From positions 66,936 through 130,935 of the IMG/VR virus record IMGVR_UViG_3300028802_000007: 64,000 nt of DNA; one strand, 5' to 3'. Of this stretch, positions 5,676 to 39,383 are shown in pieces. Numbering within the stretch: the stretch's first letter is position 1; every line of letters begins with the position of its first letter. The notes beneath the pieces were generated by a model. The model saw only the letters and a program-made list of their open reading frames with translations. It made no database searches and had not been told where the DNA came from. The DNA comes from a virus. A program made the translations under genes and the position numbers.

Positions 5676-5835
5676 GACAGCGGCTGCCAAGGGAGGTGGC
5701 GGCTGACCTTGAGCTTGTGCTCCTCGCACACGATCAGATCCGCCAAGTGCTGGCCCAGAGCAACCCTCGCCACCGCTGGCTTGCCGCACAGGGGTGGGTG
5801 GGGCGTCTTGAAGTTATTGAGCGGGTAGTTGCACT

Positions 5836-16299: not shown

Positions 16300-16824
16300 C
16301 TAGACGGCGGTCTTGGACGACTTGGTGGTGGTCGTCCGGTCCGTGATCTGGCGATCGACGGTGACCGTCGGGAGGCGCTCGAGGATCTGGCCCATCAGGT
16401 CCTTGAGGTAGCCGACCTCCTGATTGAAGCGGGCCTCGCGGAAGTCCATCTCCTTCTTGAACGCCTCGCGCTCCGTGGCGAGGTTCTCGGTCTTGACCTC
16501 GAGGACGGCCTCCTTGCGGGCCTGCTCGATACCGGCGAGGGCCTGCTCAGCCTCGAACTCCTGACGCTTGCGCTCGAGGCCGACCATGTGGGTCACCTCG
16601 CGCTTCTCGCGTGCGTTCGTCTCGACGATCCGGTCCTTGTCGATGTTCAGCTTGGCGATCTGCTCGCGGAGGACGTTCGCCTCCGTGGTGAGCTCCGTCT
16701 CCTTGCCACGCGCCTTGAGCGTCGCCTCGAGCTTGGCGATCTGTGCCGTCAGGTCGAGGACGGTGTCGGTGAGCTGCGCCTCCAGCGCCTCGCGCTTACT
16801 CGGTGTGCGATCGAAGATGCCCAT
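16300..16824 (-). CDS. coiled-coil hypothetical protein
   Basis: GGAGGTCAACC-ATG start; long charged helical heptads. Confidence 0.75.
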   Translation of the reverse strand: MGIFDRTPSKREALEAQLTDTVLDLTAQIAKLEATLKARGKETELTTEANVLREQIAKLNIDKDRIVETNAREKREVTHMVGLERKRQEFEAEQALAGIEQARKEAVLEVKTENLATEREAFKKEMDFREARFNQEVGYLKDLMGQILERLPTVTVDRQITDRTTTTKSSKTAV

Positions 16825-17122
16825 GGTTGACCTCCCTTTCGGATGAGTCTGCCGCGACCGGCGGCCCGGGTTCTTGCCCTAGGTGATGAGCTTGGCGAGC
16901 AGGAGCACGCCGAAGCCGACGATGGCGGACCAGCCGACCATAGACTGGCCCTGGCTGCGGAACTCCTCGACAACGGCCAGGAAGACCGCCACGAGCAGGC
17001 CAAGGATCACGATGGTGTCGTTCACGGGAACCTCCAACTATTCGCCCCGCTCCCCCAAGCCATCTCGCTGACCAGGGCCGGCTAAGCGCGAGAGCCATGC
17101 CTTCGCCTCAGGGCGTCGTCGT

Positions 17123-17151
17123 AGCCTAGTACCACAGTGTCATGCGGTCAA
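17123..17151 (-). promoter_or_regulatory. sigma70-like promoter (leftward)
   Basis: TTGACC-N17-TAGGCT. Confidence 0.6.
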
Positions 17152-17603
17152 GACGGCTCTCCCGCCGTCTCGGTGTCAGGGGATCGGAGACGTTGCGCGG
17201 TGATGTGCATCTGGCCGATACGTTCCGCCGACAAGCCGCAGTCGGGGCATGTCTCGGTGTCAGGGGAGCGGAGGGCGGCGTACTCGCGGGCGAGCAGCGT
17301 GATACGCCCGTCGTTCGGCTCGATGGGTGCGAACGCCTTGCTCCATGCCCGGGCCAGCCGCTCCACATCGAGCGGTGCCGCTTCTGCTGCGACATGGTAC
17401 GAGAGTGAGTTTGTCAACCGCGTGACGTAGGGTGACCCGCCGGACGGTGCATCGAGCGGTGCCGCTTCTGCTGCTGCGAGGGCGGCACGGAGCAACCGCA
17501 GAACCTCGGAATGGTGGTACTGGCCGACCGACTCCCCGCGACCGATGGCCGACTCCACCGACATCAACAACGGCTCGAAGTGGTAGCGGTCCTCGGGCGT
17601 CAT
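17148..17603 (-). CDS. hypothetical protein with internal repeated modules
   Basis: AAEAAPLD x2, RSPDTE x2. Confidence 0.55.
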   Translation of the reverse strand: MTPEDRYHFEPLLMSVESAIGRGESVGQYHHSEVLRLLRAALAAAEAAPLDAPSGGSPYVTRLTNSLSYHVAAEAAPLDVERLARAWSKAFAPIEPNDGRITLLAREYAALRSPDTETCPDCGLSAERIGQMHITAQRLRSPDTETAGEPS

Positions 17604-17724
17604 CGCCAACCTCCGCGCAGCGTGCCGACGGCGACCCATTCGGGGCCAGCGCCGAGGTCCAGACGTACCCAGACGACCATGATTAGGTAGCCGGTGAGAT
17701 CGCGCCCCGGTCGTATCTCTGCTT

Positions 17725-17997
17725 TCACGTCGTCTCCTCGGTGTCAGGGGATCGGAGGGCGGCGTACTCGGCGAGCAGCGCCGTCACGAACGCGGCGGCG
17801 TTGTAGCGGTCAGGTTCCCATCGGTTCGGGTTCGTCTCTGCGACGAGGACCGCCCATGCGTTCGTCATGGTCCGAGCATCGAGCGGTGCCGCTTCTGCTG
17901 CTGCGTGTCTATCACTGTGTCCCGCTGGCAGGTCACACAGAGCGACCGTAGCGCGGCACTTCGGAACCTCTTGCGCCCGCAGCGCGGGGTCGGTCAT
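17725..17997 (-). CDS. hypothetical protein sharing modules with 17148-17603
   Basis: AAEAAPLD and EYAALRSPDTE; RBS GGAGG. Confidence 0.55.
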   Translation of the reverse strand: MTDPALRAQEVPKCRATVALCDLPAGHSDRHAAAEAAPLDARTMTNAWAVLVAETNPNRWEPDRYNAAAFVTALLAEYAALRSPDTEETT

Positions 17998-18398
17998 CGG
18001 TCGTTCCTCCAGCCGTGATGCCACATCTCCCTCGCGGCCATGTACACCCCCGGAGCTGAGGCGATGCAGAAGAAGACGAAGAAGGTCCAGATCGGGACAT
18101 GGACCCACCAGAAGGCGAAGCCCGCAGCAAGCATGAACGGCCAGGAGATGACCGCAGCCAGCATCACCCTGTCAGTCATGCTCGACCCCCATATGCACCA
18201 GCCTCGCCACGATCTCCTCGGCACAGACCATCGACCTGTTCAGACCGATGCCGTGCTCGCGCAGGATGGCGGCGGCCTCGCGCACTTGCAGTTCACGACG
18301 ACGGAGCCTGCGCTCGACGTCCTTGCACAGATGTGGCTGCACCTGGGCCGACATATGCACCTCAGCTCCGCACCTGACGCAGTAGCGCATCGGGTCTC

Positions 18399-18635
18399 TC
18401 ACCACAGCCTCCGCCTCTTCGTCTGTGGGAGGGGCATATGGAACCTCTCCCAGCGGTTCCGAAGATCGGCCATCCGACGATCCCACTCAGGCGTGTGAGC
18501 CACACCCTCCTTCTGCCTCTCGAGATAACGCGCCAGCAAGTCAATCTCCCTGTCCGTCAACGGCCCGCGTTCGGTGTACGGAACATCATCTGGGTCCACC
18601 GGCGGCCTGTACTGGCGCGAGATCTCATCAGTCAT
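18399..18635 (-). CDS. hypothetical protein, first gene of the leftward early block
   Basis: AAGGAGGTCAACCCATG start. Confidence 0.65.
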   Translation of the reverse strand: MTDEISRQYRPPVDPDDVPYTERGPLTDREIDLLARYLERQKEGVAHTPEWDRRMADLRNRWERFHMPLPQTKRRRLW

Positions 18636-18657
18636 GGGTTGACCTCCTTCTCGCCGT

Positions 18658-18686
18658 AGCATCGTGGGTTGGTACTAGGGTGTCAA
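18658..18686 (-). promoter_or_regulatory. sigma70-like promoter (leftward)
   Basis: TTGACA-N17-GATGCT just upstream of the 18635 start. Confidence 0.6.
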
Positions 18687-18943
18687 GGGCATATGGTGGT
18701 GGGTGGATGGATGGTTGTATGTGGTCGTATGCGAGATTTTGACCTCGCTCGACGCCGGGACAAGGCTCGCGGGAAGCGAGCGACCGGGGGGGGGCCGCCG
18801 GTGCCCAGCATGCCCTACAGGGCCTCTAGGATCAACGGAGACGGCTTCGGCCTCCACTGTGCGGAGAGGAGCCCGGTGTGACACCCTCCGGGCGACCTGG
18901 GGGCTCCTAGGCCCCTTGTAGGCGATATAGCTCTGGCGGCTAC

Positions 18944-18990
18944 CGTAGCATGCTACGCCTACCGTAGCAGGTGCTACGCAAGGTGCTACG
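18944..18990. repeat. cluster of five CGTAGC/GCTACG hexamers
   Basis: CGTAGC at 18944 and 18963; GCTACG at 18952, 18973, 18985. Confidence 0.75.
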
Positions 18991-19170
18991 GCGACCGCTG
19001 CGCTCCACTCAGCAGGATCAAACTCAGGCCCCTCCGCGAGGGTGCCGTCGGGGTAGCAACCTAGGAGCACTCTGGGTCGCGGCGACCTAGCAGCCTGACC
19101 CTCGTGAGGGCGGTCTGCCCCCGCGTCCCAGATCGACCTTGGTGACCCACCGTCACGAGGAGCGCCGTGC

Positions 19171-19200
19171 TTGACACCCCTGCCGTCCATCCCCGATACT
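19171..19200 (+). promoter_or_regulatory. sigma70-like promoter (rightward early)
   Basis: TTGACA-N18-GATACT upstream of the first plus-strand gene (ATG 19246). Confidence 0.55.
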
Positions 19201-19507
19201 GGTCGCAGACACCCCCTGTGCTGGGGTGACGCATGGAGGTCAACCATGACTCACAAGGCCCGTGTTATCGCGGCGAGCAAGGCCCGTCGCTACCCACCCT
19301 GCGACGACTGCGGCAAGGTCGTCGCCCTTGAGGGTCACGCCTGTGACCTCAAGCCCCTCGCCCGATGACCGCCATCCTCGACGCCATCGACCGCCTCCCG
19401 ACCATGGTCTGGGCGCTGGTCGTCATGCTGTCGGCGTGGGCCATCATCGCCTTCGCCTTCGCCCTGATGGTCGGCACCTACCTCGCCATCGGCGAACTGG
19501 TCGCGGC

Positions 19508-19963
19508 ATGACCACCTACAACGCAGCCTCCATCAACTGCGAGTGCGGACACCCGGGCATCGACGGCCACAACATGCGGCAGTCGCCCCCGGAGTGCCTG
19601 ACCCCCGGCTGCATCTGCGGCCTGTACGGTGCCACCGCTGACGGCTCGTCCGTCCATCGCGTGGGCCGCTGGGTGGTCCGCATCGCCCCTGAGCCCGCCG
19701 ACCTCTATCTGGGGACGGATCGGACTTGGACCCGCGAGCGGGCGACCTACGAGACGGGCACCATCGTTGAGGTCTACGACGCCAAGTACGTCGAGGGCTT
19801 CACCCCTCTGGGCCAGTTCGTCACCGCCTACGGTGCCCGGACCCTGACCGACTCAGCCGTCGGTCGTGGCACAGGGCTCATCCTCGACGGCGGTATCCCG
19901 GCATGGCGCATGAGCGCCGATGAGTTCACCACCGTCCTAGGGCTCATCGCCCGCTGGGGCTGA
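19508..19963 (+). CDS. hypothetical protein
   Basis: Start MTTYNAAS; stop codon is the first triplet of repeat copy 1. Confidence 0.65.
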   Translation: MTTYNAASINCECGHPGIDGHNMRQSPPECLTPGCICGLYGATADGSSVHRVGRWVVRIAPEPADLYLGTDRTWTRERATYETGTIVEVYDAKYVEGFTPLGQFVTAYGARTLTDSAVGRGTGLILDGGIPAWRMSADEFTTVLGLIARWG

Positions 19964-20016
19964 CCCTCACGGGTGCCCCCCACTGGGAGGCACCAGCGAG
20001 CGCCAGACAGGCACTC
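19961..20016 (+). repeat. cassette-boundary double-hairpin repeat, copy 1
   Basis: TGACCCTCACG-[GGTGCC..GGCACC]-AGCGAGCGCC-AGACA-GGCACTC. Confidence 0.9.
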
Positions 20017-20033
20017 AGGTAGCAGGAGGAAGC

Positions 20034-20627
20034 ATGAAGGTCTTGGTCGTCTGTGAGTACAGCGGGCGCGTCAGGGACGCGTTCAGGGCTGAGGGGCACG
20101 AGGCCATCTCGTGCGACCTCCTGCCCACTGAGGTCCCCGGGCCTCACATCATCGGGGACGCCCTTGAGGCGATCCGCGCTGAGAAGCCCGACCTCCTCAT
20201 CGCCCACCCGCCCTGCACCTACCTCGCCAACTCAGGCGTCCGGTGGCTGTACGGCGGCAAGGGCACCACCATCGACCCGGTCCGCTGGGCGCAGATGGTC
20301 GAGGGCGCGGCCTTCTTCAAGGCCCTCCTCAACGCCGACGTCCCGATGGTCGCGGTCGAGAACCCGGTGATGCACGGCTTCGCCCGGGACCTCATCGGCC
20401 AGCGGGCCAACCAGTTCATCCATCCGTGGCAGTTCGGCCACGGCGAGCAGAAGTCCACAGGGCTCTGGCTCCGTGGTCTGCCCCTCCTGACCCCGACCGA
20501 CGTGGTCGAGGGCCGGGAGCAGCGGGTCTGGCGGATGGGTCCGTCGGCTGACCGCTGGAAGGAACGCAGCCGCACGTTCAGCGGCATCGCGGCTGCCATG
20601 GCAGCCCAGTGGGGAGGTCAGCGATGA
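20034..20627 (+). CDS. short phage-type DNA cytosine methyltransferase
   Basis: KVLVVCEYSGRVRDAF, SCDLLP, LLIAHPPCTYL (catalytic PC), AVENP, RSRTFSGIAAAMAAQWG. Confidence 0.8.
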   Translation: MKVLVVCEYSGRVRDAFRAEGHEAISCDLLPTEVPGPHIIGDALEAIRAEKPDLLIAHPPCTYLANSGVRWLYGGKGTTIDPVRWAQMVEGAAFFKALLNADVPMVAVENPVMHGFARDLIGQRANQFIHPWQFGHGEQKSTGLWLRGLPLLTPTDVVEGREQRVWRMGPSADRWKERSRTFSGIAAAMAAQWGGQR

Positions 20628-20893
20628 CTGAGGACATCAACGCCATCCGGGCGAGGAACGAGGCCAACCGCGAGGCCCACAGGGTCGCGGCGCTGGCACG
20701 GCAGGAGGCCTACCGGGCCTCCCCTGAGTACAGGGAGGCCAGGTTGGCGCGGATCAACTCTGGCCTGTGCGTCATCGATGACGACCAGTGCGTCACCCAC
20801 GGGGTCCCCGGCGACTTCGGCCACTACCTCGACACCCGCCCCGCTGAGGACCGGGGCCACAACCCGGTCAGCGGCATCGCCTACAACGACTGA
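20624..20893 (+). CDS. hypothetical protein
   Basis: ATGA-coupled; stop is in repeat copy 2. Confidence 0.65.
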   Translation: MTEDINAIRARNEANREAHRVAALARQEAYRASPEYREARLARINSGLCVIDDDQCVTHGVPGDFGHYLDTRPAEDRGHNPVSGIAYND

Positions 20894-20945
20894 CCCTCAC
20901 GGGAGCCCTGACCTCAGGGCTCCAGCGAGCGCCAGACAGGCACTC
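20891..20945 (+). repeat. cassette-boundary repeat, copy 2
   Basis: Stem GGAGCCCTG/CAGGGCTCC. Confidence 0.9.
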
Positions 20946-20960
20946 AAGAAGGAGAAGAGC

Positions 20961-21320
20961 ATGGCACTCACCAAGTCCGATCTGGAACGGGCCATCGAGG
21001 ACGAGCGCCGTCAGGGCACCGTCGGATACAACGAGGGCGATGGCCGCAGCCAGCGGCTCCGGGCCAAGGGCGCGACCATCGTGGTCCGCGAGGCCAACGC
21101 CAAGGGCTGGTCGTACGACGACCTCGTCCTCTGGGTGGACTCCAAGTACGGGCGCTGGTTCTGGGACAGCCTGTACGGCTGCGACGACCCTGAGGGCGCG
21201 GCCCGGGCGGTCACCCTCGACTGGGTCGAGCCCGGGGAAGGCGACTACGTCTACGACCCGACTCCCTACACCGTGGCGGTCGCCCGCAGTGGTGAGTGGG
21301 GCTCGCAGCGACCTCGCTGA
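20961..21320 (+). CDS. hypothetical protein
   Basis: RBS AAGGAG supplied after the repeat; stop is in copy 3. Confidence 0.7.
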   Translation: MALTKSDLERAIEDERRQGTVGYNEGDGRSQRLRAKGATIVVREANAKGWSYDDLVLWVDSKYGRWFWDSLYGCDDPEGAARAVTLDWVEPGEGDYVYDPTPYTVAVARSGEWGSQRPR

Positions 21321-21374
21321 CCCTCACGGGAGGCCCACGAGCTTGGGCCTCCGGCGAGCGCCAGATGGGCACTC
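21318..21374 (+). repeat. cassette-boundary repeat, copy 3
   Basis: Stem GGAGGCCCA/TGGGCCTCC. Confidence 0.9.
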
Positions 21375-21558
21375 TAGAAGGAGAACAGATGGACAGCCAG
21401 AACGGAGTCTCCGCTCTGATCCTGACGCCTCAGGACCGTCGCGACCTACAGGCCGCACTGGTCGAGGCCATCGACACCGCCGACACGACGGCGGACTACA
21501 ACAGCCCTCAGGTCGCCCGCTGGGTGGCCCTCATCAACCTCATCGAGGAGGGCAACAA

Positions 21559-21984
21559 GTGAGCACCGGAGCCGACTGCCAGTTCAAGGAGGTCACACCG
21601 GGCCGCTGGTCGTACGCCCTTCAGGAGTGGCCCTACGGCGACTCGAACGAGTACACCTCGTACGGACCCTTCGCCTCGTTCGCGATCGCGCGGGACCACC
21701 TCGACCAGAACCACGCCAACCCGGGCGGCTGGATGACCACCATCCATCCGACAGGCCACGTCCACGAGTGGACGACCGACCGTGGTGCCTACGTCCCGGC
21801 GGGCGTGGTGGTCACCATCCGCGTCGAGTCGCTGGGTCAGGACCCGACGCCTGAGGCCCTCCTGAAGTTGATCACCAAGAAAGGTGCCCTGACCACTGAC
21901 CACCTCAGCATCAGGCCTGAGACGCGCTACGACATGAACGCCAAGGTCACGTCCTGCGAGTCCTGCAACCAGCAGAAGCCCTGA
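21559..21984 (+). CDS. hypothetical protein
   Basis: GTGA-coupled to small ORF 21389-21562; stop is in copy 4. Confidence 0.6.
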   Translation: MSTGADCQFKEVTPGRWSYALQEWPYGDSNEYTSYGPFASFAIARDHLDQNHANPGGWMTTIHPTGHVHEWTTDRGAYVPAGVVVTIRVESLGQDPTPEALLKLITKKGALTTDHLSIRPETRYDMNAKVTSCESCNQQKP

Positions 21985-22037
21985 CCCTCACGGCTGGCCC
22001 CCACTGGGAGCCAGCAGCGAGTGCCAGATGGGTGCTC
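21982..22037 (+). repeat. cassette-boundary repeat, copy 4
   Basis: Stem GCTGGC..GCCAGC. Confidence 0.9.
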
Positions 22038-22056
22038 TAGCAACAGGAGGTCAACC

Positions 22057-22563
22057 ATGGCAAGCAAGTACCCCGACGTCGGGTCCTACAAGGCCTCGCC
22101 GGACAACCGCGACATCGCCCGTCGGGTCGAGTGCGACTTCGTCGCCAGCGGATCGGGCTCCTACTACAGCCGCGCATGCTCCAACCTCGCGGCGTGGGTC
22201 AGGGTCTACCGCCACAAGGACGGCACGGTCACCACGACCAGCGACCTCCGGTGCCACCGCCACCGCGCCATCGATGAGCGCACCGCCACCAACCGCAAGT
22301 GGTCGAGCCAGTTCAACGCCGACGGCTCGTCCAACCTCATGTTCCCCCAGTTCGACCCGTTCGACGGGATGGCTGCGGCCAAGCGTCTGATCCGCGAGGA
22401 ACAGGCCAGGTTGCAGGAGGCCCGCCTCGCGGCCATCAGCGAGAAGGTCGCGGAGGCCGCCGCCTACATCACAGCCCACATCGTCGGGCTGGACGAGGAG
22501 ACGGTCGGCTCCCTCAACGCCATCCACGCCATGGCGACCCTTGGAACGCTGGTGGTCCGGTGA
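22057..22563 (+). CDS. hypothetical protein
   Basis: AGGAGGTCAACCATG start. Confidence 0.7.
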   Translation: MASKYPDVGSYKASPDNRDIARRVECDFVASGSGSYYSRACSNLAAWVRVYRHKDGTVTTTSDLRCHRHRAIDERTATNRKWSSQFNADGSSNLMFPQFDPFDGMAAAKRLIREEQARLQEARLAAISEKVAEAAAYITAHIVGLDEETVGSLNAIHAMATLGTLVVR

Positions 22564-22853
22564 CCGCCGAAGAGGTCAGGGCTCGCTACCTCATCAGCGA
22601 GGCAGCTTGGGCGACCATGCGGGCGGTGACGCTCGAGGTCCACGACGTCACAGGCGAGGTCGTGGCCCTCGCCGTCCGGGGCGTGCCCTCGTTCTCAGAG
22701 CCTCAGGGCGAGGACAGCGACGAGTTCTTCTACGACGTGGACTGGCTCCAGTGGTTCAAGTTCGCCTACCCCGGTCGGAGCATCGTCGGGTCGATGGCTC
22801 CCGTTGATCAGGACACGGAGGAGGCGTTCGTCTGGTTCATCGCTCTGGACTGA
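22560..22853 (+). CDS. hypothetical protein
   Basis: GTGA-coupled; stop is in copy 5. Confidence 0.6.
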   Translation: MTAEEVRARYLISEAAWATMRAVTLEVHDVTGEVVALAVRGVPSFSEPQGEDSDEFFYDVDWLQWFKFAYPGRSIVGSMAPVDQDTEEAFVWFIALD

Positions 22854-22904
22854 CCCTCACGGCTGGGGCTGACGGCCCCAGCAGCGAGTGCCAGATGGGC
22901 GCTT
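22851..22904 (+). repeat. cassette-boundary repeat, copy 5
   Basis: Stem GCTGGGGC/GCCCCAGC. Confidence 0.9.
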
Positions 22905-22924
22905 GGGATCGCAGGAGGTCAACC

Positions 22925-23311
22925 ATGGACAAGGCACAGGTCAAGGTCATCCACGAAGAGGTCAGCGAGGCCATCAGGACCGTCTACGCCAAGCACGGCC
23001 TGACCATCACCAGCGACCGCGCCTCCTACGGCGAGGCGGAGTTCAACATCAGCGTCAAGGCCATCAGCACCAAGGCTGAGGATCAGGCCAAGACGTGGGC
23101 ACAGTACGCACCGGTCTACGGCCTCCCCGTCGATGGCTTCGGTCAGTTGGTCACCATCAACCGCCAGCAGTACGTCATCACCGGGCTCGACCTGAACCGT
23201 CGAGGCTACGTCGTCCGGGTGAAGAACCTAGGCACCGGCAAGGTCAGCCTGTTCAAGGCCGATGCGATCCGGCGGGCACTCGCCCTCATCGACATCAGCA
23301 GCCCCGCCTGA
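22925..23311 (+). CDS. hypothetical protein
   Basis: AGGAGGTCAACCATG start; stop is in copy 6. Confidence 0.75.
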   Translation: MDKAQVKVIHEEVSEAIRTVYAKHGLTITSDRASYGEAEFNISVKAISTKAEDQAKTWAQYAPVYGLPVDGFGQLVTINRQQYVITGLDLNRRGYVVRVKNLGTGKVSLFKADAIRRALALIDISSPA

Positions 23312-23364
23312 CCCTCACGGCTGAGGCCTCGCCGGCCTCAGCAGCGAGCGCCATGTCGGCACTC
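23309..23364 (+). repeat. cassette-boundary repeat, copy 6
   Basis: Stem GCTGAGGCC/GGCCTCAGC. Confidence 0.9.
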
Positions 23365-23382
23365 AAGTACAGGAGGTCAACC

Positions 23383-23625
23383 ATGAGCCCCATCGAACTG
23401 GCAGAGCGTCTGGGCCAGAGCCCCGACCTCGACAACCGGGCAACAGGTGTCGCCATCATCGTGCGCGGCCTGTGCGACGACGACGGCGATCGCATGGGCT
23501 GGCCGATGACCGCAGCGGTCGTGGCCCGTGCGGCCAAGCACATCGGTGTCGAGCCCACAGCCGAGCTGGTGGAGGCGGTCCTCGAGCTCGCCCCGATCCT
23601 GCCCGACTTCTACCTCAACCGATGA
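23383..23625 (+). CDS. hypothetical protein
   Basis: AGGAGGTCAACCATG start. Confidence 0.65.
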   Translation: MSPIELAERLGQSPDLDNRATGVAIIVRGLCDDDGDRMGWPMTAAVVARAAKHIGVEPTAELVEAVLELAPILPDFYLNR

Positions 23626-24040
23626 TGAACGACGTCAGCCTGGTCGGGCACTGCCCGGACTGCGACTTCAACCTCGACGGCGGTGGCAACGAGGACTGCG
23701 AGACGTGCGCCGCAGAGCCCGCCTTTGTCACCGTGGTCGAGGCGGTGGACCGCGACATCGTCGTGGTCATCATCGCCTTCGACTCAGGCCGCGACCTCAA
23801 GGACAACCGCATCCTCAACTACCTCGTGGATCGGTGGCCGAACCACCGACCTCTGGCCGTCCAGATGGACGGCTCCGTCATCACCGTGACCGACGCCGGG
23901 TTCGTCGCCATCCTCGACCTGAACATCGGAGGCTGACGTGCCTGACCGCGAGGAGCTCCCGGCTGGCCCGACCAACGCTGCCGCTGAGGTGTGGTACGAA
24001 CTCCAGCGGCGCATCCAACAGCATCTACCTGTACCTGGGG

Positions 24041-24069
24041 TTGACACCCCGGCGGCCAAGCCTCAGACT
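24041..24069 (+). promoter_or_regulatory. possible internal sigma70-like promoter
   Basis: TTGACA-N17-CAGACT; shares TTGACACCC with the promoters at 19171 and 18686. Confidence 0.45.
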
Positions 24070-24245
24070 CACGAGGTGAGGTCAACCGACGAACTCGAAG
24101 ACGAGCCCGTGTGCGAGCACGTCCACGTCGAGAAGGACGACGACGGCGAGTTCGCCCGCCGGTTCTTCTGCCTCGACTGTCAGCAACAGGTCGTCCCGGG
24201 CGAGCCCGACGAAGACGGCGAGTCATTCTGGGAGGAGGTCAACTG

Positions 24246-24578
24246 ATGCCCATCATCATCGACGGCAACGTCACGGTCAGCGTCAAGACCCTCAAGATGC
24301 ACGAGGGTCACGCCATCAAGGTCCACACCATCGACGGTCGGACGGGCCTGTACTGCGTCGATGACGGCATCATCGAGCAGGAGCCCAAGCCCTCCACCTC
24401 GCTGTGGTGCGGCTGCCCGGATCGGGCCGAACATGACGAGGGTGTCGCCCTCCAGACCCAGTTCCGCAAGCAGTACCGCATCCCCAAGTCGTCGTGCGTC
24501 GGCTGCTATCTGGGCGACGACGGACCGTCGATGCACTCCTGCTACATCCACGCAGAGAAGGATTGGCCCACAGCCTGA
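24246..24578 (+). CDS. Cys/His-rich hypothetical protein
   Basis: GGAGGTCAACTGATG start; stop is in copy 7. Confidence 0.65.
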   Translation: MPIIIDGNVTVSVKTLKMHEGHAIKVHTIDGRTGLYCVDDGIIEQEPKPSTSLWCGCPDRAEHDEGVALQTQFRKQYRIPKSSCVGCYLGDDGPSMHSCYIHAEKDWPTA

Positions 24579-24635
24579 CCCTCACCCCAGCCGCTGATTG
24601 ACCCAGCGGCTGGAGCGAGCGCCAGATTGGCACTC
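24576..24635 (+). repeat. cassette-boundary repeat, copy 7
   Basis: Stem CCAGCCGCTG/CAGCGGCTGG. Confidence 0.9.
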
Positions 24636-24653
24636 ATCAACAGGAGGTCAGCC

Positions 24654-25220
24654 ATGGCCGAAGCCACCATCACCTACAAGGTGCCTCACTTCAAGGGCAC
24701 AGCGGCACTCGACCGCTACGGCGACTACGACGGCAACGTCCTGCTCCAGGCACTGGTCAGCGGCGACGGACCGGCGGTGGATCAGTTCCTCGCGGAACTC
24801 GCCATCAAGCAGAACGAGGAGTTCGACCGGACCGACGCCCGGTACGCCTATCAGGCCAAGGTCATCGAGGCCATCGACCCAATCATCGCAGCGACCAGCC
24901 TCACGGGCTTCAAGGCCTACGCCAACACCGACCCCAAGACGCGCTACCGCCGACCGAAGATCACCAAGGAGGGCGAGGGCTGCCAAGCTGGCTACTGCGA
25001 CCTCGCGGCCAAGTACCGGCTGCCCGATCCGCAGGAAGGCAACGACTGGGAGGCCTACACCCTCGCGTGCCAGAAGCACGCCATCAAGAGCATCAACAGC
25101 CGCGCTGACTTTGTGGCGAAGGGTGGGGTAGCGCCTCTCCGTCACGTCTACCTGACCAGCGACCAGCATCGCACCATCACTGATGCGATCCGCGAGGGCC
25201 TCAAGACCGTCAAGGCCTGA
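24654..25220 (+). CDS. hypothetical protein
   Basis: AGGAGGTCAGCCATG start; stop is in copy 8. Confidence 0.75.
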   Translation: MAEATITYKVPHFKGTAALDRYGDYDGNVLLQALVSGDGPAVDQFLAELAIKQNEEFDRTDARYAYQAKVIEAIDPIIAATSLTGFKAYANTDPKTRYRRPKITKEGEGCQAGYCDLAAKYRLPDPQEGNDWEAYTLACQKHAIKSINSRADFVAKGGVAPLRHVYLTSDQHRTITDAIREGLKTVKA

Positions 25221-25273
25221 CCCTCACGCCAGCCCCCGGGCCGGGGGCTGGAGCGAGCGCCAGACTGGCACTC
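25218..25273 (+). repeat. cassette-boundary repeat, copy 8
   Basis: Stem CCAGCCCCC/GGGGGCTGG. Confidence 0.9.
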
Positions 25274-25288
25274 AACAAGGAGGTCGCC

Positions 25289-25648
25289 ATGGGCATCACC
25301 TACGAAGAGGTGGACAAGTACTGGGACTCGACCATCGCCCGCCTCAAGGCGGAGTTCCCGGCGGAGTGGAGCATCACCGGCTACAAGGGCCATGGCACCC
25401 GCGACGGCGTGGCCTGGGTCGCCAAGCTGCGCCGCAACGGCAAGGTCGTCGGCTCTCTCGAAGACTCCGGTGTCGGTGGGTCGGTCTTCATCGACTTCTG
25501 GACGAAGGTCGGCAACTCCATCGACTACGGCCACAACAGCGAGGACGCCAAGGCGTGGGCCGCTGCGATCGCAGCCGCGCTGCCCGACGAGAAGATCGAG
25601 CCTGACCAGATGGTCATCGAGGCCCTCCTCCAGCGAGCCGGCAAGTGA
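25289..25648 (+). CDS. hypothetical protein
   Basis: AAGGAGG RBS after repeat copy 8. Confidence 0.7.
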   Translation: MGITYEEVDKYWDSTIARLKAEFPAEWSITGYKGHGTRDGVAWVAKLRRNGKVVGSLEDSGVGGSVFIDFWTKVGNSIDYGHNSEDAKAWAAAIAAALPDEKIEPDQMVIEALLQRAGK

Positions 25649-26337
25649 AGGTTCTCGACCTCTACTCCGGTCTGGGCGGCTGGTCACAGCCAGCCCTCGA
25701 CGCCGGTCACGAGGTGGTCAGGGTCGAGTGGGACAAGCGCCTCGCGGCTGAGGTGCCCAACACCATTCAGGCCGACATCACCGAACTGACGGCGACCGAT
25801 CTCCTCAACATGTGCGACGGCAAGCCCGACCTGATCCTCGCCTCGCCTCCCTGCGAGTCGTGGTCGGTCATGGTCCTGTCACGCAACTGGTTCCCCGACT
25901 ACACACCCAAGAGCCAGCGTGCGGTCGAGGCCATCCTCATGGTCAGCCACACACTGGAGTTGATCCACCAGCTCGACCCTGCCTTCTGGGTCATGGAGAA
26001 CCCACGCGGCATGATGCGGAAGCATCCGGTGGTCGCCGGGCTGGAGCGTCGGACCATCACCTACTGCCACTACGGCGAGCAGCGCATGAAGCCGACCGAT
26101 CTGTGGTCGGACCGCTGGCCCGCCAGCCTCACCCTCGCACCGGCGTGCAAGAACGGCGACCCCTGTCACGTCCGCGCACCTCGCGGCTCGATGACCGGGA
26201 CCCAGGGCATGAAGGGCGACCGCAACGGCTACTGGACGAAGTCCCTCATCCCGTACCCGCTGGCACGCGACGTCACCGACGCCGTCTGCCGCGACCTAGA
26301 GGCGGGCCACGTCGGCTCCAACCTCACGCTCTGGTAA
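25645..26337 (+). CDS. DNA cytosine (C5) methyltransferase
   Basis: KVLDLYSGLGGWS (motif I), ADI, LILASPPCESWS (motif IV), VMENPRG (motif VI). Confidence 0.85.
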   Translation: MKVLDLYSGLGGWSQPALDAGHEVVRVEWDKRLAAEVPNTIQADITELTATDLLNMCDGKPDLILASPPCESWSVMVLSRNWFPDYTPKSQRAVEAILMVSHTLELIHQLDPAFWVMENPRGMMRKHPVVAGLERRTITYCHYGEQRMKPTDLWSDRWPASLTLAPACKNGDPCHVRAPRGSMTGTQGMKGDRNGYWTKSLIPYPLARDVTDAVCRDLEAGHVGSNLTLW

Positions 26338-26348
26338 GGAGGTCAACC

Positions 26349-26594
26349 ATGGCTATCACGATGCGCTCGTCTGATCGCGCTGAGGTCATCCGCGAGATGG
26401 CCCGGGAGCTCCTCGCGAAGGCGGACTTACTGGACGGCACCTCGCCGTGCGTCTGCGGACACCTCCGCCAGAACCACGATCCGGCGGGCTGGAACGAGGG
26501 CTGGTGCAGCGGTGCCCAGACCACGCGGCGACCCAAGAACCAGATCATCGCCGCCGACGGCGACTGCAAGTGCGAGGAGTTCGAGGCATGGTGA
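26349..26594 (+). CDS. Cys/His-rich hypothetical protein
   Basis: AGGAGGTCAACCATG start; CVCGH...H...C...CKC. Confidence 0.6.
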   Translation: MAITMRSSDRAEVIREMARELLAKADLLDGTSPCVCGHLRQNHDPAGWNEGWCSGAQTTRRPKNQIIAADGDCKCEEFEAW

Positions 26595-27371
26595 GAGAGC
26601 GAACACTGGCTGAGTACCGCGAAGCGATGGCCGCAGACAGCAACGCCTCGTTCTACGAGGAGCGCCGCCTCAACTTCCTGATCCTCGCCCTGCCTGACGG
26701 CCACCTTGGCACGGGGGAGATTGTCAGCGTCTCCTTCCGCGAGGGCATCGACTTCATCGATGAGGACTGGCCTGAGTTCGGCAACTTCCTCATCTTGGAG
26801 ACGGCATGAAGACCAACGGACCGAAACTCGTCGGTGACTGGCGTCGCCGTCGCGGCTCCAAGACCGACGCCCACCTGTTCGACGGATCGGGGCACCACCC
26901 GTTCGACCAGCGACCGATGTGCGGCAAGGCCATCCGCCACATGAGCACCGAACCGGCGACGCTCTGGACGGGCACGCCCATCAGCCGGTCAGGCTCGTTC
27001 TGGGCGCTGCCCTGCACGGAGTGCCTCGTTCAGGCCATCACCCGCCAGCGCAAGGAGGTCAACCATGCCTGAGACACGACGCATCAAGGCCACCTACTAC
27101 CCGGTGCGCCAAGCACACCCACGCCGGACCGACTGGGCCAGGGTCGCCCTGTTCATCGCTGGCGGCATCGTCGCCGCGATCGCGGTCTGGGCCTTCGTCG
27201 CCCTGTTCCTCGTGACGTTCTGATGTGCGGCAGGGAGGACGACCCGTCCATGACTGACGTCTGCACCCGCTGCGGGCATCCCGCCACCGACCATGGCGGC
27301 GGCCCCGGCGAGGGCGAGTATCCCGATCTGCCGTGCGACTGCGGCTGCGACCGCTGGACGGAGGAGGGCTG

Positions 27372-27776
27372 ATGCCAGCCATCGACATCCCGGCGGAGAT
27401 GCCCCAGCTCAAGGGCCTGTTCGTGGGCGGCTGCGTCGCTCGAGGAGACGGCTCCTCGTTCCGGGCTCGAGCTCACGCCCACACCTTGCCCAGCGACTAC
27501 AAGGGCTGGGTCTGCGTCAGGGCAGCACATCGCGTGCTCACGCCCTCAGGCCGGCCCTCCCGTCTGATGTGGCACGAGTACGCCCACATCACCACCGGTC
27601 ACGGACATGACGCCGTCTGGCGCGAGCGGATCACGGAGTACGGCTTCCCGGCGGAGGCCCACCGGTACATCAGGAAGAAGAGGCCGCCGCTCGTCTGGTA
27701 TTGGTATGACCCCGCCACTGGCGAGCGCCAGACGGGTGCCCACCGCGAGATGGTCGCAGCACTGAGAGGAAGGTAG
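27372..27776 (+). CDS. HExxH zinc metallopeptidase-like (SprT-like) protein
   Basis: LMWHEYAHITTGHGHDAVWR. Confidence 0.65.
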   Translation: MPAIDIPAEMPQLKGLFVGGCVARGDGSSFRARAHAHTLPSDYKGWVCVRAAHRVLTPSGRPSRLMWHEYAHITTGHGHDAVWRERITEYGFPAEAHRYIRKKRPPLVWYWYDPATGERQTGAHREMVAALRGR

Positions 27777-28420
27777 ACATGGACATCACCGCGCTCATCA
27801 TCGAGCTGGTCCAGGTTCGCGAGGTCTTCGGTGACCTCGAGGTCATGGTGGCACTGGAGCAGACAGGCGACGAACCTGTGACCGATGTCATCGTGCTGCC
27901 CGCCGACAAGCAGTTCCGCCGCGTCGTCAAGATCGCGGCGCTGGGAAAGCGTGACAACGCCTAGGCCACGGGCCTATACTCACCAAAGGAGGTCAACACA
28001 GAGTGGACGAGAAGCCGGATCAACCACCCCCGAAGCGGTTCTGGAGGGTCACCTTCTGGACTGCCGACGGGTCTGAGCACCGCCGCTACATCCGCTGCCC
28101 GTACGCATCGCCTGACTCGCTCGTCGGCGTGTCGGCCAGGCTGGGCGAACTGATGTGGGACGGCATCATCACCAGCTACCGCCTCAGCCCTGTCCCATCG
28201 GCCCGTGTCGCGGTCGTCCGTGACCGGTCCGTCCGCTGGAGCGAGGTCGAAGCGACCCTCGCCGCCTAGGAGACACCATGCTTATCGCACTGTTCATCAC
28301 CGGCATCCTGATGTACATCATCGGCTCACGTCTCGACAAGGGCGAACGCCGCAAGCGCGAACGTGAGATCGACCTCAAGTACGGCCACACCGCCGACGGT
28401 CGCCCCCTCGAGCGACGCCG

Positions 28421-30614: not shown

Positions 30615-31319
30615 GTGACTCGCCCCGTCGTCTTCTCCGCATCGTCGGTCAACGCCTACCTCGACTGCCACCTCCAGTGGTGGTTCAGCTACGTTCTCAA
30701 CGAGGAGGGATACCAGTCCGAAGCGAAGGTCTTCGGCATCGCCTTCCACGACGCCGTCGAGGCGATCCTGAAGGGCACCCTGCCGTCGGATGCGTTCGAT
30801 GACTACCCCATCAAGAGCGCGATCGAGGTCTTCGTCCGCGACATCCTGCCGACCTACCGCAACCCGGTGTGGATCGAGAAGGAGTTCCAGATCGAGGTCA
30901 ACGGCATCCCGTACAGCGGCGTCATCGACGCTCTGGACGAGCAGGACACGCCGTGGGGTTTCGAGGACATCCTGCGCGACCACAAGAGCACCGGCAGCCG
31001 GCCCCGGGCCGGACGCTACCGCTTCAACATGCAGGGCTACTGGATGGGGGCCCGGGACCTAGGCCGCACCCCGGCTGCCATCCAGCTCGACTACGTCGTC
31101 CGAACCAAGACGCCCTACTACTGGCCGGAGGTCGTGCCAGTCCCAGACGATGACGACCTGGCGGTTTTCGCCACGACCCTCAAGAGGGTGGCAGATGGTG
31201 TTGACCGTTCTGACTACCGGGCTACAGGTTTGGGCACCCGGGCCTGTTCGAGTTGTCCCTACACCGCGATGTGCGGTCCATACCAGCGTTTCATGGAGGT
31301 CACCGATGGCAACGTCTGA
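30615..31319 (+). CDS. PD-(D/E)XK (RecB-like) exonuclease
   Basis: FSASSVNAYLDC, FGIAFHDAVE, EKEF, GVIDALD, LRDHKS, QGYW, CSSCPYTAMC. Confidence 0.88.
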   Translation: MTRPVVFSASSVNAYLDCHLQWWFSYVLNEEGYQSEAKVFGIAFHDAVEAILKGTLPSDAFDDYPIKSAIEVFVRDILPTYRNPVWIEKEFQIEVNGIPYSGVIDALDEQDTPWGFEDILRDHKSTGSRPRAGRYRFNMQGYWMGARDLGRTPAAIQLDYVVRTKTPYYWPEVVPVPDDDDLAVFATTLKRVADGVDRSDYRATGLGTRACSSCPYTAMCGPYQRFMEVTDGNV

Positions 31320-32118
31320 AGCCAAGGTCATGCCCACCCTCGCCGCCAAGTTGGCGGAGATCATGGGCGAGATGGCCCACGTCAAGAAGGAGGGCTTCAA
31401 CAAGGCCCAGAACTACCGCTTCGTCCGCGAGACCGACGTGGCTGAGAAGGCGTCGGAGCTCCTCGCGGCGCGGCACATCTGGGTCCACCAGTCGGTCATC
31501 AGCGAGGAGATGGTGCCGCTCTACACGACCGCGTCTGGCTCCCAGATGTGGCTGACCAAGTTGCAGATCGCCTTCAAGTTCATCGACGGTGACACCAAGG
31601 AGGAGACCGAGCCGCAGACCTTCAGCGGCCACGGTGCCGACACCGGCGACAAGGGTGTCTACAAGGCGATGACCGGTGCCGAGAAGTACTTCCTGATGAA
31701 GAGCTTCCTCGTCTCGACCGGCGACGATCCTGAGGCCGACGAGAAGGTGGACAAGGCCGCCGCTGCCGCCGGATCGACTGGAGCGCCTCGCGTGGTGCGC
31801 GGCAATCAGGCTGGCGTCCAGCGTGGCGGCAAGAGCACCAACGCGACCGCCGCTCAGGTCAACGAGGTCGCCCGCCTCTACAGGGATCTGAACCTGACGC
31901 CGGAGTCGGTCCTGCCCATCATCCAGGCCACCCTTGGCAGCATCCCGGGCGAGGGCCAGACGCTGCGTGACTTCCTTGGTGCCCAGAAGGGCGACGACGT
32001 CGCCAAGCTCATCAGCACCCTCATGGAGTTCAAGCCCGTCGAGGCCGACGCGGTCGAGCCGGGTGATGTCGCCGTCGAGGGCGAAGACGACCTTCCCCCG
32101 GCGATGGCCGTCGTCTAG
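31306..32118 (+). CDS. ERF-family single-strand annealing protein
   Basis: VKKEGFNKAQNYRFV...GADTGDKGVYKAMTGAEKYFLMKSFLVSTGDDPE. Confidence 0.85.
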   Translation: MATSEAKVMPTLAAKLAEIMGEMAHVKKEGFNKAQNYRFVRETDVAEKASELLAARHIWVHQSVISEEMVPLYTTASGSQMWLTKLQIAFKFIDGDTKEETEPQTFSGHGADTGDKGVYKAMTGAEKYFLMKSFLVSTGDDPEADEKVDKAAAAAGSTGAPRVVRGNQAGVQRGGKSTNATAAQVNEVARLYRDLNLTPESVLPIIQATLGSIPGEGQTLRDFLGAQKGDDVAKLISTLMEFKPVEADAVEPGDVAVEGEDDLPPAMAVV

Positions 32119-33173: not shown

Positions 33174-34524
33174 CGGCAACGAGCGGTTCAACTTCGAGAA
33201 GATCGGGCTGGGCTACCGCGTGTGGCCGACCGACGAGAAGCTCAACACCGAACTGAAGATCAGCCGCATCAAGCGCAGCAGCCAAGAGTTGCACGGCTAC
33301 CTCCAGGTCATGTGCAAGTTCGAGGGCGTCAAGACCGTCAACGGCGTCCTCCACTCGACCCGCTTCAACATGTCGGCGGGCCAGACGCGCAAGGGCCTCG
33401 CCAAGCTCCTCGCGGAGCGGACGCCGGGCTTCGAGAAGATGGACTGGTTCGACGCCCTCGAGTCCCTGTGCCAGTGGGTGGCGGAGGCTGAGAGCCGTGG
33501 TGAGCCGGTCATCGCGGTCGGCACCGGCATCGCCCCGGCACAGCGCACCACGCGCCTCGCTCTGGACCCGCTGGTGCCCGCCAACGTGGCTTCCCTGCTG
33601 TACGGGCCCGGAGGTGCCGGGAAGAGCGTGCTGGCCCTCGCTGGGGCCCTGTCCATCGCGGTCAACGAAGAGATCATCCCGGGCATCCCGCCCGTCATCA
33701 ACGGACCCGTCCTGTACCTCGACTGGGAGACCGACGCTCACGTCGTCAACGACAGGCTCTGGTCGCTCTGCGCTGGGGCCGGCGTCGAGCCAGCCAACGT
33801 CAGCTACCGCCGCTGCAACCGTCCGCTGGCGGACGACGCTGAAGAGCTGGCGATGCTGGTCGCGGAGAAGAAGATCGTCTACGTCGTCATCGACTCGTGC
33901 GGCCCGGCGATGGGCACGTCGGGTGAGTACGGCGACGCCAACGAGAGCACCCTGCGCCTGTTCGAGGCGATCCGCCACATCGGCATCACCACCCAGATCA
34001 TCGACCATGTCAGCAAGCAGGAGATGCGATCGCCCAAGGGCAACGTCACCGGGCTCCTGCCGTACGGCTCCATCTACAAGGTCAACCTGTCACGCGCCGC
34101 GTGGGAGCTCCGCAACAGCACCACGACGGACGACGAGCAGTTGCACATCACCCTCCACAACACCAAGGCCAACGACTCGCGGCTCCGCGAGCCCATCAGG
34201 CTGCTGCTCGACTGGGCGACCGACAGCATCGCCTTCCAAGCCGATACCGACGGTCCGGCCCCGCGAGACGACATCAGCGGCAACACCTGGCGTGACAAGC
34301 TCCGCAACTTCCTCCTCGAGGACGACGAGCCGCCGCGCTACACCGTCGAGGTCGCCAAGCTGCTCAACACCACCGACGCCAACATCCGCAACCAGATCCA
34401 GCGCAACCCGTCGGACTTCACCCGTCCCGACGGAGAGCCGAAGAAGATCATGCTGACTGTCAGTGGGGGTATCGGCGGACCATCGAACGTCGTCTCTTTC
34501 ATGGCCGCGAGGGGTCCTGAATGA
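33166..34524 (+). CDS. RecA/DnaB-like (AAA_25) replicative helicase
   Basis: LLYGPGGAGKS Walker A, VLYLDWE, VVIDS Walker B, IIDHVSK, YGS; C-terminal HTH-like tail. Confidence 0.85.
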   Translation: MNSGNERFNFEKIGLGYRVWPTDEKLNTELKISRIKRSSQELHGYLQVMCKFEGVKTVNGVLHSTRFNMSAGQTRKGLAKLLAERTPGFEKMDWFDALESLCQWVAEAESRGEPVIAVGTGIAPAQRTTRLALDPLVPANVASLLYGPGGAGKSVLALAGALSIAVNEEIIPGIPPVINGPVLYLDWETDAHVVNDRLWSLCAGAGVEPANVSYRRCNRPLADDAEELAMLVAEKKIVYVVIDSCGPAMGTSGEYGDANESTLRLFEAIRHIGITTQIIDHVSKQEMRSPKGNVTGLLPYGSIYKVNLSRAAWELRNSTTTDDEQLHITLHNTKANDSRLREPIRLLLDWATDSIAFQADTDGPAPRDDISGNTWRDKLRNFLLEDDEPPRYTVEVAKLLNTTDANIRNQIQRNPSDFTRPDGEPKKIMLTVSGGIGGPSNVVSFMAARGPE

Positions 34525-34527
34525 CCT

Positions 34528-34670
34528 ACCGTAGCAGTGCCGTAGCATGCGTAGCGTAGCAACCGTAGCAGGCGTCAGGTACCGTAGCGTAGCACCCACC
34601 CCTATAGGGGTGCTACGCTACGGTTCCTGCTACGCCCCGCTGGCCCTCGTGCCGGGTCTGGGTGCTACGG
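34528..34670. repeat. putative replication origin: 11 CGTAGC/GCTACG iterons and a 17-bp inverted repeat
   Basis: ACCGTAGCGTAGCACCC (34581-34597) / GGGTGCTACGCTACGGT (34608-34624); intergenic, directly after primase-helicase. Confidence 0.7.
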
Positions 34671-34674
34671 TCCG

Positions 34675-35055
34675 ATGACACGCAAAGATGCTGTCTCTGA
34701 ATGGACCGCCGACCAGGTCGCCCGACGAGATAACTACAGGTGCATCGCACCCCGCATCGACGGTCAATCCGGGTGGTGCCGCGATCGCTGGGGCAATGCC
34801 ATCACCCGCTGGCCGGTCAACCGCATCGACCGTGACAAGTTGACCTTCGCCCACGTCAAGGACGCCGACGCCCAAGCGATGGGCAAGCGGGCCCCGTCGG
34901 ATCAGGCCCACCTCGTGCTGCTGTGCTGGGGGCACCACGAGGGAGCGGGCGAGACCGGCGGCTACTGTTGGGGCACCAGCCGGGCTGGCCTCGACAAGCA
35001 GCGGATCTACCTCGCTGGCTTCCACACCCTCAACCCAAGGACACCGCTCCTATGA
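34675..35055 (+). CDS. HNH-like endonuclease
   Basis: RRDNYRC...C...TFAHVK...HLVLLCWGHH. Confidence 0.55.
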   Translation: MTRKDAVSEWTADQVARRDNYRCIAPRIDGQSGWCRDRWGNAITRWPVNRIDRDKLTFAHVKDADAQAMGKRAPSDQAHLVLLCWGHHEGAGETGGYCWGTSRAGLDKQRIYLAGFHTLNPRTPLL

Positions 35056-37013: not shown

Positions 37014-37014
37014 G

Positions 37015-39377: not shown

Positions 39378-39383
39378 TCGCGG

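Follow-up and report, generated by a model that had tools for sequence, protein, structure and literature searches.

A double-hairpin element that begins on a stop codon recurs between early-gene cassettes of an uncultured soil phage

The early region of an uncultured soil virus raises the question of what separates, and perhaps connects, its small groups of genes. The 64,000-nucleotide stretch analyzed here, hereafter the window, comprises positions 66936-130935 of the 130,935-base record IMGVR_UViG_3300028802_000007. In this window, groups of early genes are set apart by a folded spacer of ~75 bases that begins on the stop codon of the preceding gene. The original prediction described eight such spacers as covarying double-hairpin repeats, each of which runs from the TGA stop codon of one open reading frame (ORF) to the ribosome binding site (RBS) of the next and lacks a U tract. 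It proposed an undescribed structured element that functions in RNA processing or antitermination, and/or that shuffles anti-host genes. The description holds, and the same element is found in phages that share almost no genes with this one. Its role is open to several explanations, among which we tentatively favor a transcribed adaptor between cistrons that might be flipped by the terminating ribosome, and whose repeated boxes might double as crossover points.

All eight copies are present, share one orientation and occur far more often than chance would produce (Table 1). The sequence TGACCCTCAC matches exactly at the start of each element on the plus strand, and at one additional site on the minus strand (36175). 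When up to one mismatch is allowed, it has 18 matches, compared with 7.45 expected, and none of 100 shuffled sequences reaches 18. The pattern GCGAGYGCC-N5-GGYRCT is also exact at the eight element sites, and has 22 matches, including reverse-strand echoes, compared with 3.37 expected. A covariance model built from the copies detects 14 elements in the whole record, with scores of 74.6-88 bits. The record contains as many as 14 because it carries two diverged genome versions: comparison of the record with itself reveals two fully syntenic versions of ~74 kb, arranged head-to-tail, with 65-86% nucleotide identity. Eight elements belong to version B, the genome copy in the window, and six to version A, the other copy. 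The doubled genome may be real, as a concatemer or co-integrate, or it may be an assembly chimera of two strains that occurred together. All 14 elements are intergenic and lie on the plus strand, co-oriented with the genes; in each version, none is more than ~6 kb behind the early promoter. The next-best match to the model scores 31 bits and echoes element 8 on the reverse strand. Half of an element, comprising an exact 5' arm and loop of the second hairpin, lies within the 3' end of ORF 27372-27776. It may be a decayed ninth copy that was absorbed by the upstream ORF; the resemblance is weak, and could have arisen by chance.

The anatomy of the element was defined by using an alignment of 22 copies, of which 14 are from the record and 8 from other contigs. 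Each copy begins with an 11-nucleotide (nt) box, (C)UGACCCUCAC, termed X, which holds the upstream stop codon. The box is followed by a GC hairpin (hairpin 1, with stem 1) that varies in sequence while its pairing is kept. Next comes segment X', GCGAGYGCCA, which is identical in all 22 copies except at position Y, and then segment X'', GGYRCUC, which pairs with X' to form hairpin 2. The flanks are thus conserved and the center variable, and both the box and X' are unchanged even between phages that share almost no genes. The sequence of stem 1 is different in all eight copies of the window. Nonetheless, 95% of its cells are paired among the 14 copies of the record, and compensatory changes occur in eight of the nine pairs; among the 22 copies, 94% are paired, and all nine pairs show compensatory changes. 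In both alignments, the covariation score is reached by 0 of 500 shuffles, and sliding the 3' partners of hairpin 1 by 1-3 columns as a control reduces pairing to 31-49%. This strong covariation, which bears out the varying yet paired stem of the original prediction, indicates that pairing in stem 1 is under purifying selection.

Hairpin 2 behaves differently. It is a perfect Watson-Crick helix in none of the 14 copies of the record, and its arms are linked: a C in the left arm goes with the right arm GGCACUC, and thus with a C.A mismatch, in nine of nine copies, and a U in the left arm goes with a different right arm in five of five (counts 9/0/0/5; Fisher p=0.0005, for copies that are not independent). 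Segment X' is also complementary to the box, at 7 of 10 positions in each of the 22 copies. The copy in IMGVR_UViG_3300010052_000212 has the box TGACACTCGC, which departs from the consensus twice, and both departures mend mismatches between X and X' (A5-U45 and G9-C41).

Because X' is complementary to both X and X'', the proposal that a GAG can pair with either of two CUC triplets, allowing two conformations, is correct in silico and extends beyond the triplets. Pairing of X' with X creates one long imperfect hairpin, whereas pairing with X'' creates hairpin 2. The corresponding constrained folds are nearly equal in energy, differing by 0.2-5.2 kcal/mol. Where position Y is C, as in nine of the record copies, the CUC of the box pairs with GAG in the free minimum-energy fold; that of the five U-type copies contains the full hairpin 2. 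Blocking the 3' arm leads to a predicted long interrupted helix of ~20 bp in all 14 copies. On the mRNA strand, three mismatches interrupt this helix, and of the two folds it is always the less stable. The changes in the variant box, the imperfect and linked arms of hairpin 2 and the near-equal predicted energies suggest that both pairings matter.

The element joins the end of one gene to the start of the next. In the window, its TGA is the stop codon of the upstream ORF in all eight copies. Across the record, 12 of 14 copies hold this stop within the box; of the other two, one has TAG at the corresponding position and the second has its TAG 7 nt upstream. The box extends to 11 nt because its -1 base, the last of the upstream ORF, is C in every one of the 14 copies, compared with 75 of 205 gene calls (37%). 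At the other end, AGGAG or GGAGG followed by ATG is found 70-78 nt after the TGA in all eight window copies, and the next cistron always begins in this way, 4-12 nt beyond hairpin 2. The distance from TGA to ATG maintains no constant frame (1, 1, 2, 0, 2, 2, 0 and 2), which excludes a fusion by read-through of the TGA. Inspection of the element sequences revealed no mini-ORF in a consistent frame, such as MIRU repeats have.

The start signals themselves are not specific to the elements. The sequence GGAGGTCA is the generic RBS of this phage, occurring at 29 of 205 gene calls, 11 of which are at elements. The motif GAGGTCA is found at most 25 nt upstream of 29 of the 205 called genes, on both strands and with no tie to elements. 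Similarly, GGAGGTCAAC(C)ATG is a stereotyped start signal throughout the genome (for example, at 19234-19248 and 24232-24248).

The cassettes between consecutive elements contain 2, 1, 2, 2, 1, 4 and 1 genes, in agreement with the one to four small ORFs per unit, including a methyltransferase, that the original prediction listed. The first gene of each cassette has an ATG behind GGAG(G), and genes internal to a cassette mostly follow a 4-nt overlap of stop and start codons. Fourteen ORFs, from element 1 to the first gene behind element 8, were searched against protein families. The only strong match is that of a DNA methyltransferase (phrog_757, E 1.8e-56); a second ORF is weakly HicB-like (E 1.7e-4), and the other 12 match no family. 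One orphan DNA methyltransferase is the sole support for the suggestion that the cargo acts against the host. In all, three DNA methyltransferase genes are found in the window (20034-20627, 25645-26337 and 36991-38751). Two of them belong to the same PHROG family, one located in a cassette and the other just behind the array.

At least eight additional full copies of the element are found in six other uncultured viral or metagenome contigs. These were identified by pattern scans, followed by the covariance model. The complete 47-kb genome IMGVR_UViG_3300028802_000219 (G001) has three copies, the fragment IMGVR_UViG_3300032256_000287 (G002) has one clear and one degenerate copy, and IMGVR_UViG_3300010052_000212 has one; three metagenome contigs have two, one and one. 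The 53 viral pattern matches led to two real contigs, 75 viral loci with the hairpin-2 pattern to one real copy, and the 120 loci listed for metagenome_contigs to three real ones. No copies were found among the 120 loci (80 + 40) listed for genome_contigs, among 10 additional viral pattern loci, or at 80 viral loci (1.08 Mb) with a homologue of the neighboring methyltransferase. One locus of the hairpin-2 set that scored 28.9 bits (L314) was judged on reading to be coding sequence or chance.

All eight full copies elsewhere have a stop codon in the box. Each stands near the beginning of an operon, preceded by a site resembling a promoter or by a control region rich in repeats. Two of them have an extra hairpin between hairpin 2 and the RBS, which implies that the conserved core consists of the box and the two hairpins, and excludes the RBS. 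G001 shares only 5 of 205 predicted proteins with the present record. Two of these five are homologues of the cassette genes 20624-20893 and 22057-22563, and they are found directly behind the three elements of G001. Thus, the element passes between otherwise unrelated phages, together with some of its cargo. The three G001 elements (L064 2001-2673) have one identical stem and differ in their loops alone, whereas the stems in the present record all differ.

Comparison of the two genome versions indicates that cassettes are rearranged. Cassette order differs between versions A and B, and several breakpoints are at elements. The single-gene cassette 22925-23311 is located between elements 5 and 6 in version B, and between the first two elements in version A. 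In both versions, gene 20961-21320 stands behind an element, and the stems of these two elements are similar; in version A, three genes come after it without an intervening element. The methyltransferase gene that stands behind element 1 in version B is internal to a cassette in version A, with overlapping start and stop codons, and version A has an extra gene behind its last element. The box marks the start of homology between the versions twice, and hairpin 2 does so once, so breakpoints occur on both sides of hairpin 1. No pair of empty and filled sites and no target duplication was seen in this comparison.

Metagenome data include a precise loss of one cassette. A 367-nt contig from a soil run of another study (X2) spans 20606-20889 and resumes at 21317-21423. 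The 427 bases missing at the joint amount to exactly cassette 2 and the length of one element, so that element 2 runs straight into element 3; the 16 letters CTGACCCTCACGGGAG fit both sides. The joints in X4 (23727 to 23946, and 22564 to 22781) are inside cassettes or at plain gene boundaries. A 5,611-nt contig from the probable source run corresponds to 20237-25847 without any difference, and is not independent evidence. We conclude that the elements serve as crossover points, though not the only ones. The proposed recombination platform is borne out as an effect. Several breakpoints between the two versions coincide with elements, and X2 lacks exactly one cassette. However, other breakpoints are at element-free gene boundaries and no site-specific recombinase was detected among the proteins searched, so homologous recombination by the Erf annealing protein and exonuclease of the phage suffices.

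The array may be transcribed as a unit. A promoter scan of 16800-28000 revealed three sites, at 19171, 27774 and 27951, none of which is within an element; only the first is upstream of the array. A terminator scan of the same region found one site, which is outside the elements, and no T runs or U tracts occur in them. With no U tract behind them, the hairpins of the element are unlikely to be strong terminators, as had been predicted, although T-run terminators do occur elsewhere in this genome. Mycobacterial RNA polymerase is known to require a U tract for termination. The element also appears to be undescribed. No Rfam family matches at gathering score anywhere in the window, and a search of 19000-26000 at E<=1 returned only mir-3179 (E=0.64), a chance match.

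These observations are consistent with an adaptor that couples cistrons, a model that remains tentative. One long early mRNA would start at the upstream promoter and carry the elements as self-folding adaptors. A ribosome that terminates at the UGA would cover X, and would thereby force the hairpin-2 state, so that the element reports translation of the upstream gene to the next cistron. By folding on itself, the element would prevent interference from neighboring coding sequences. It might thus insulate the strong start site of the next cassette while coupling it to the preceding one, and any gene group placed between two elements would be expressed. Because boxes of ~11 nt and ~20 nt recur at every junction, the recombination system of the phage could cross over within them, and cassettes are proposed to be lost, gained and reordered in this way. 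Such an adaptor accounts better than its rivals for the stop codon's constant position, for the conserved C at -1, for the balance between alternative pairings and for the persistent imperfection of hairpin 2. RNA as the active form, its flipping by the ribosome and the nature of the output are inferred.

Several observations weigh against the adaptor. X, X' and the loop of hairpin 2 are invariant rather than covarying, as would be expected equally of a switch and of a site recognized by a protein or nuclease. Minimum-energy folds of full-length elements are closed by pairing of the box with the RBS, which would offer a simple output, yet predicted RBS accessibility at elements (mean 0.35) is similar to the 0.32 of a control set of 117 genes. 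With the box masked, the mean increases no further than 0.43, and two copies show a decrease. Moreover, the helix of box and RBS uses the generic GGAGGTCA, and distant copies lack this complementarity. Because accessibility is no lower at elements than at controls, an output based simply on masking of the RBS is not supported, and masking by the box was rejected.

The other difficulty is a strand asymmetry. In 19 of 22 cores, the reverse strand gives a more stable fold than the mRNA strand, by a mean of 6.1 kcal/mol, because the conserved A.C mismatches of X with X', and in most copies those of hairpin 2, become G.U pairs. This leaves room for functions of the DNA or its bottom strand. When folded as DNA, the bottom strand of each of elements 1, 6 and 7 yields a helix of ~20-22 bp with a 1x1 internal loop, and two of the three have one further one-base interruption. 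Wobble counts in stem 1 (six G.U and five A.C) provide no strand signal. It is possible that the bottom strand is the active form, as in attC sites, or that the long helix of the mRNA strand is kept weak so that the two folds balance. Alternatively, the A>T and C>G skew of the region could create the asymmetry with no need for selection.

Among other explanations for the element, RNA processing is an unlikely one. In phage T7, the RNase III sites are repeated interrupted hairpins between the early cistrons of one transcript, and the long helix predicted here when the 3' arm is blocked is likewise an interrupted helix of ~20 bp between cistrons. An endoribonuclease might cut this helix or the linker between the hairpins, such that the upstream mRNA ends in hairpin 1 and the downstream mRNA starts at hairpin 2, thereby processing or stabilizing the transcript. 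The location of the elements between cistrons of an early operon with a single promoter and the lack of a U tract fit this function, and the invariant X, X' and GCCA after the helix would suit recognition by a nuclease. However, the mRNA strand favors the other fold in every copy, and a processing site does not explain the stop codon in the box. A stop codon within the element and a second, competing hairpin also set it apart from the T7 sites.

Recombination of the bottom strand by a phage protein, with cassette mobility as the primary function, is similarly doubtful. Integron attC sites have R''/L'' and L'/R' core sequences (RYYYAAC ... GTTRRRY), and are used by the IntI tyrosine recombinase together with attI. 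The element resembles them in its conserved, imperfectly pairing flanks, in a variable center that keeps its fold, in a bottom strand that folds better in silico as a near-perfect long hairpin, and in its location directly behind promoterless ORFs within a co-oriented array downstream of one promoter. The exact loss of cassette 2 between two elements, the different cassette order in versions A and B, and the cassette-gene homologues that adjoin elements in G001 are as expected for such sites. Yet the flanks are TGACCCTCAC and GCGAGYGCCA rather than R and L cores, and there is no integrase gene or attI. No tyrosine or serine recombinase or HUH nuclease was detected in the 15 + 74 + 61 proteins searched (the latter two sets by PHROGs and Pfam), many proteins being orphans. 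Breakpoints are not limited to one point in the site: crossovers on either side of stem 1 and at element-free boundaries are what homologous, rather than site-specific, exchange would be expected to give, and base-composition skew can account for the strand asymmetry.

A DNA operator array is improbable. In this case, a phage regulator would bind hairpin 2 (as GAGYGCC-N5-GGYRCTC) or the asymmetric box, and block or tune transcription. Sequences that are invariant rather than covarying, at oriented intergenic sites beside stop codons, are compatible with protein binding to DNA. The conserved inverted repeats of phiC31 likewise form many oriented intergenic sites. Stoperators of L5 and Cluster A phages (PMC9283540) and of Streptomyces phage R4 (PMC10276819) are further precedents; they are asymmetric sites of one orientation in short intergenic gaps near stop codons, as are 14 of 14 elements. 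However, stoperators require an immunity repressor and a temperate lifestyle, and have no covarying hairpin. No repressor, helix-turn-helix protein or integrase was detected here among the 74 proteins searched by PHROGs, the 61 by Pfam or the set of 15, with orphan proteins remaining. In addition, the half-sites are identical in 0 of 14 copies, hairpin 1 and its covariation would be left unexplained, and CGTAGCA arrays at the promoter region, together with a large palindrome, constitute a different and more obvious operator-like repeat.

The elements could instead lack a function of their own, being scars left at junctions, or small selfish repeats that travel with cassettes and are tolerated because they provide a stop codon and stand ahead of an RBS. 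We give this little credence. The box and RBS are inverted repeats (TGACC-TC and GAGGTCA), and the copies are few and clustered, which is consistent with such an origin. It does not account for a box and X' that are identical in phages with almost no common genes, for selection on the pairing of stem 1, or for the maintained imperfection of hairpin 2, and no empty and filled sites or target duplications were seen.

A more elaborate possibility, to which we assign a low probability, combines functions of both strands. The element might be a viral counterpart of the integron, in which attC-like sites on the bottom strand capture and reshuffle promoterless cassettes in a lytic phage through an unrecognized phage protein, while the mRNA strand doubles as an adaptor sensed by ribosomes.

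Finally, a partial terminator or attenuator that grades expression along the early operon is very improbable, because, although a stable GC hairpin stands directly behind each cassette and the stem-loops of PeSL (promoter-early stem-loop) elements act as terminators (PMC2839356), the element lacks the U tract that T-run terminators elsewhere in this genome have, and eight terminators in a row, with no promoter among them, would deprive later genes of transcripts, the sites resembling promoters that come next being those at 27774 and 27951.

The element works most like PeSLs and looks most like SAS and ESAS repeats, and is a member of neither group. PeSLs of T4-like phages combine a sigma-70-like promoter with a terminator stem-loop (PMC2839356, PMC4122927). 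They are, like the element, short composite repeats with a GC-rich stem-loop that flank orphan genes in a hyperplastic early region, and insertions, deletions and replacements in relatives fall at the repeats, apparently through recombination at short homologies. They differ in having their own promoter (none of the three sites in our scan is in an element) and their own terminator (no U tract here). Conversely, a start on a stop codon, a second conserved hairpin and an alternative pairing distinguish the element from PeSLs, and no sequence is common to the two.

SAS and ESAS repeats are known from Cluster K mycobacteriophages (PMC3203893). The former is a 13-mer, GGGATAGGAGCCC, at the start site, and the latter has sequence-conserved arms of 17 bp. 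Like the element, these are oriented repeats before a subset of genes in actinophage-type genomes, and they combine an RBS region with an upstream spaced inverted repeat; a role in translation is suspected, as it is for the element. Here, GGGATAGGAGCCC and the 17-bp arms are absent, and a stop-codon box and an imperfect 7-bp hairpin are conserved instead. The large hairpin is variable, and the RBS is the generic one of the phage. The element also lacks the U tract that follows the hairpin of an intrinsic terminator, and no covariance-model match connects it to any Rfam family, including HK022 put.

Table 1. Positions of the elements and associated features in the window (scores are from the covariance model)
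Feature	Coordinates	Strand	End of upstream ORF	Score (bits)	Remarks
Early promoter, sigma-70-like	19171..19200	+			TTGACA-18-GATACT; 10/12 matches; only one upstream of array; putative function
Element 1	19961..20036	+	19963	76.0	From TGA of ORF 19343-19963 to ATG of methyltransferase gene 20034-20627
Element 2	20891..20963	+	20893	76.3	Followed by single-gene cassette 20961-21320; left end of X2 joint
Element 3	21318..21391	+	21320	74.6	Right end of X2 joint
Element 4	21982..22059	+	21984	83.9	
Element 5	22851..22927	+	22853	75.1	Cassette behind it (22925-23311) is first cassette in version A
Element 6	23309..23385	+	23311	87.6	Followed by four-gene cassette
Element 7	24576..24656	+	24578	85.7	Minus strand as DNA forms 22-bp hairpin, z -6.07
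Element 8	25218..25291	+	25220	84.9	Last copy; later genes joined without elements
Possible relic	27707..27741	+		12.1	TGACCCC, 7 nt, then GCGAGCGCCAGACGGGTGCC; 1 mismatch; no hairpin 1
PD-(D/E)XK exonuclease	30615-31319	+			With Erf, the phage's own homologous-recombination pair
Erf-type annealing protein	31306-32118	+			Recombination pair with exonuclease; putative link to elements

The gene content of the phage includes portal, terminase and tail genes, the Erf annealing protein, the PD-(D/E)XK exonuclease, the three DNA methyltransferases and a Ro60-like protein. A tape measure protein is probable from its position. No integrase, repressor or RNA polymerase was detected among 15 proteins, 74 proteins searched by PHROGs and 61 by Pfam, many of them being orphans. 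An N4-like virion RNA polymerase, which would use hairpin promoters, was considered and rejected: two giant proteins have no PDB sequence match and no Pfam family, and one of them is the probable tape measure protein. Among catalogued phages, the window has no megablast match, and a distant search mode returned methyltransferase fragments only. Its GC content and type of RBS lead us to guess at an actinobacterial host.

The Ro60-like protein has TROVE and vWA domains and is encoded at 40005-41570. The ~650 bases upstream of it (39352-40004) have no called gene, and no Y-RNA, other Rfam match at gathering score or tRNA was found. A link between the element and the Ro60/TROVE protein was rejected, as this family is absent from the complete G001 and from the fragment G002.

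Arrays of the motif CGTAGCA/TGCTACG are found at 18940-19000, immediately upstream of the early promoter. A large, near-perfect palindrome of this motif follows the AAA_25 helicase gene at 34524-34675, and is found again at 26131-26495 of the record. The arrays and palindrome resemble repeats of an operator or origin, and differ from the elements.

Two other features were observed. A minus-strand cluster at 3045-7547, within the leftward late block and downstream of the portal gene, has three glycosyltransferase-like genes and two nucleotide-sugar epimerase genes. In addition, ~125 bases at ~17150-17290 on the minus strand, in the 3' end of ORF 17148-17603, are ~95% identical to a sequence in G001, and also occur at L468 745-870. 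This stretch is bounded by a 17-nt direct repeat, TCCCCTGACACCGAGAC, that is also present in two additional viral contigs. No Rfam family matches the stretch, which may represent a small element, either mobile or structured.

Phage early regions contain many small orphan genes with fast turnover, and, T4-like phages apart, little is understood of how such genes are exchanged and still expressed in new surroundings. The element presents a compact junction that is open to experiment, in which a stop codon is built into a two-state fold between cassettes, with direct metagenomic evidence of cassette turnover. If it acts as an adaptor or switch, it would be a natural part with which to insulate and couple genes in high-GC hosts, and if its function is at the level of DNA, it would point to a viral system for cassette capture. 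Either way, the element adds a new and well-defined family of structured motifs to catalogues of RNAs and repeats, and provides a marker for hyperplastic regions in uncultured, actinophage-like genomes.

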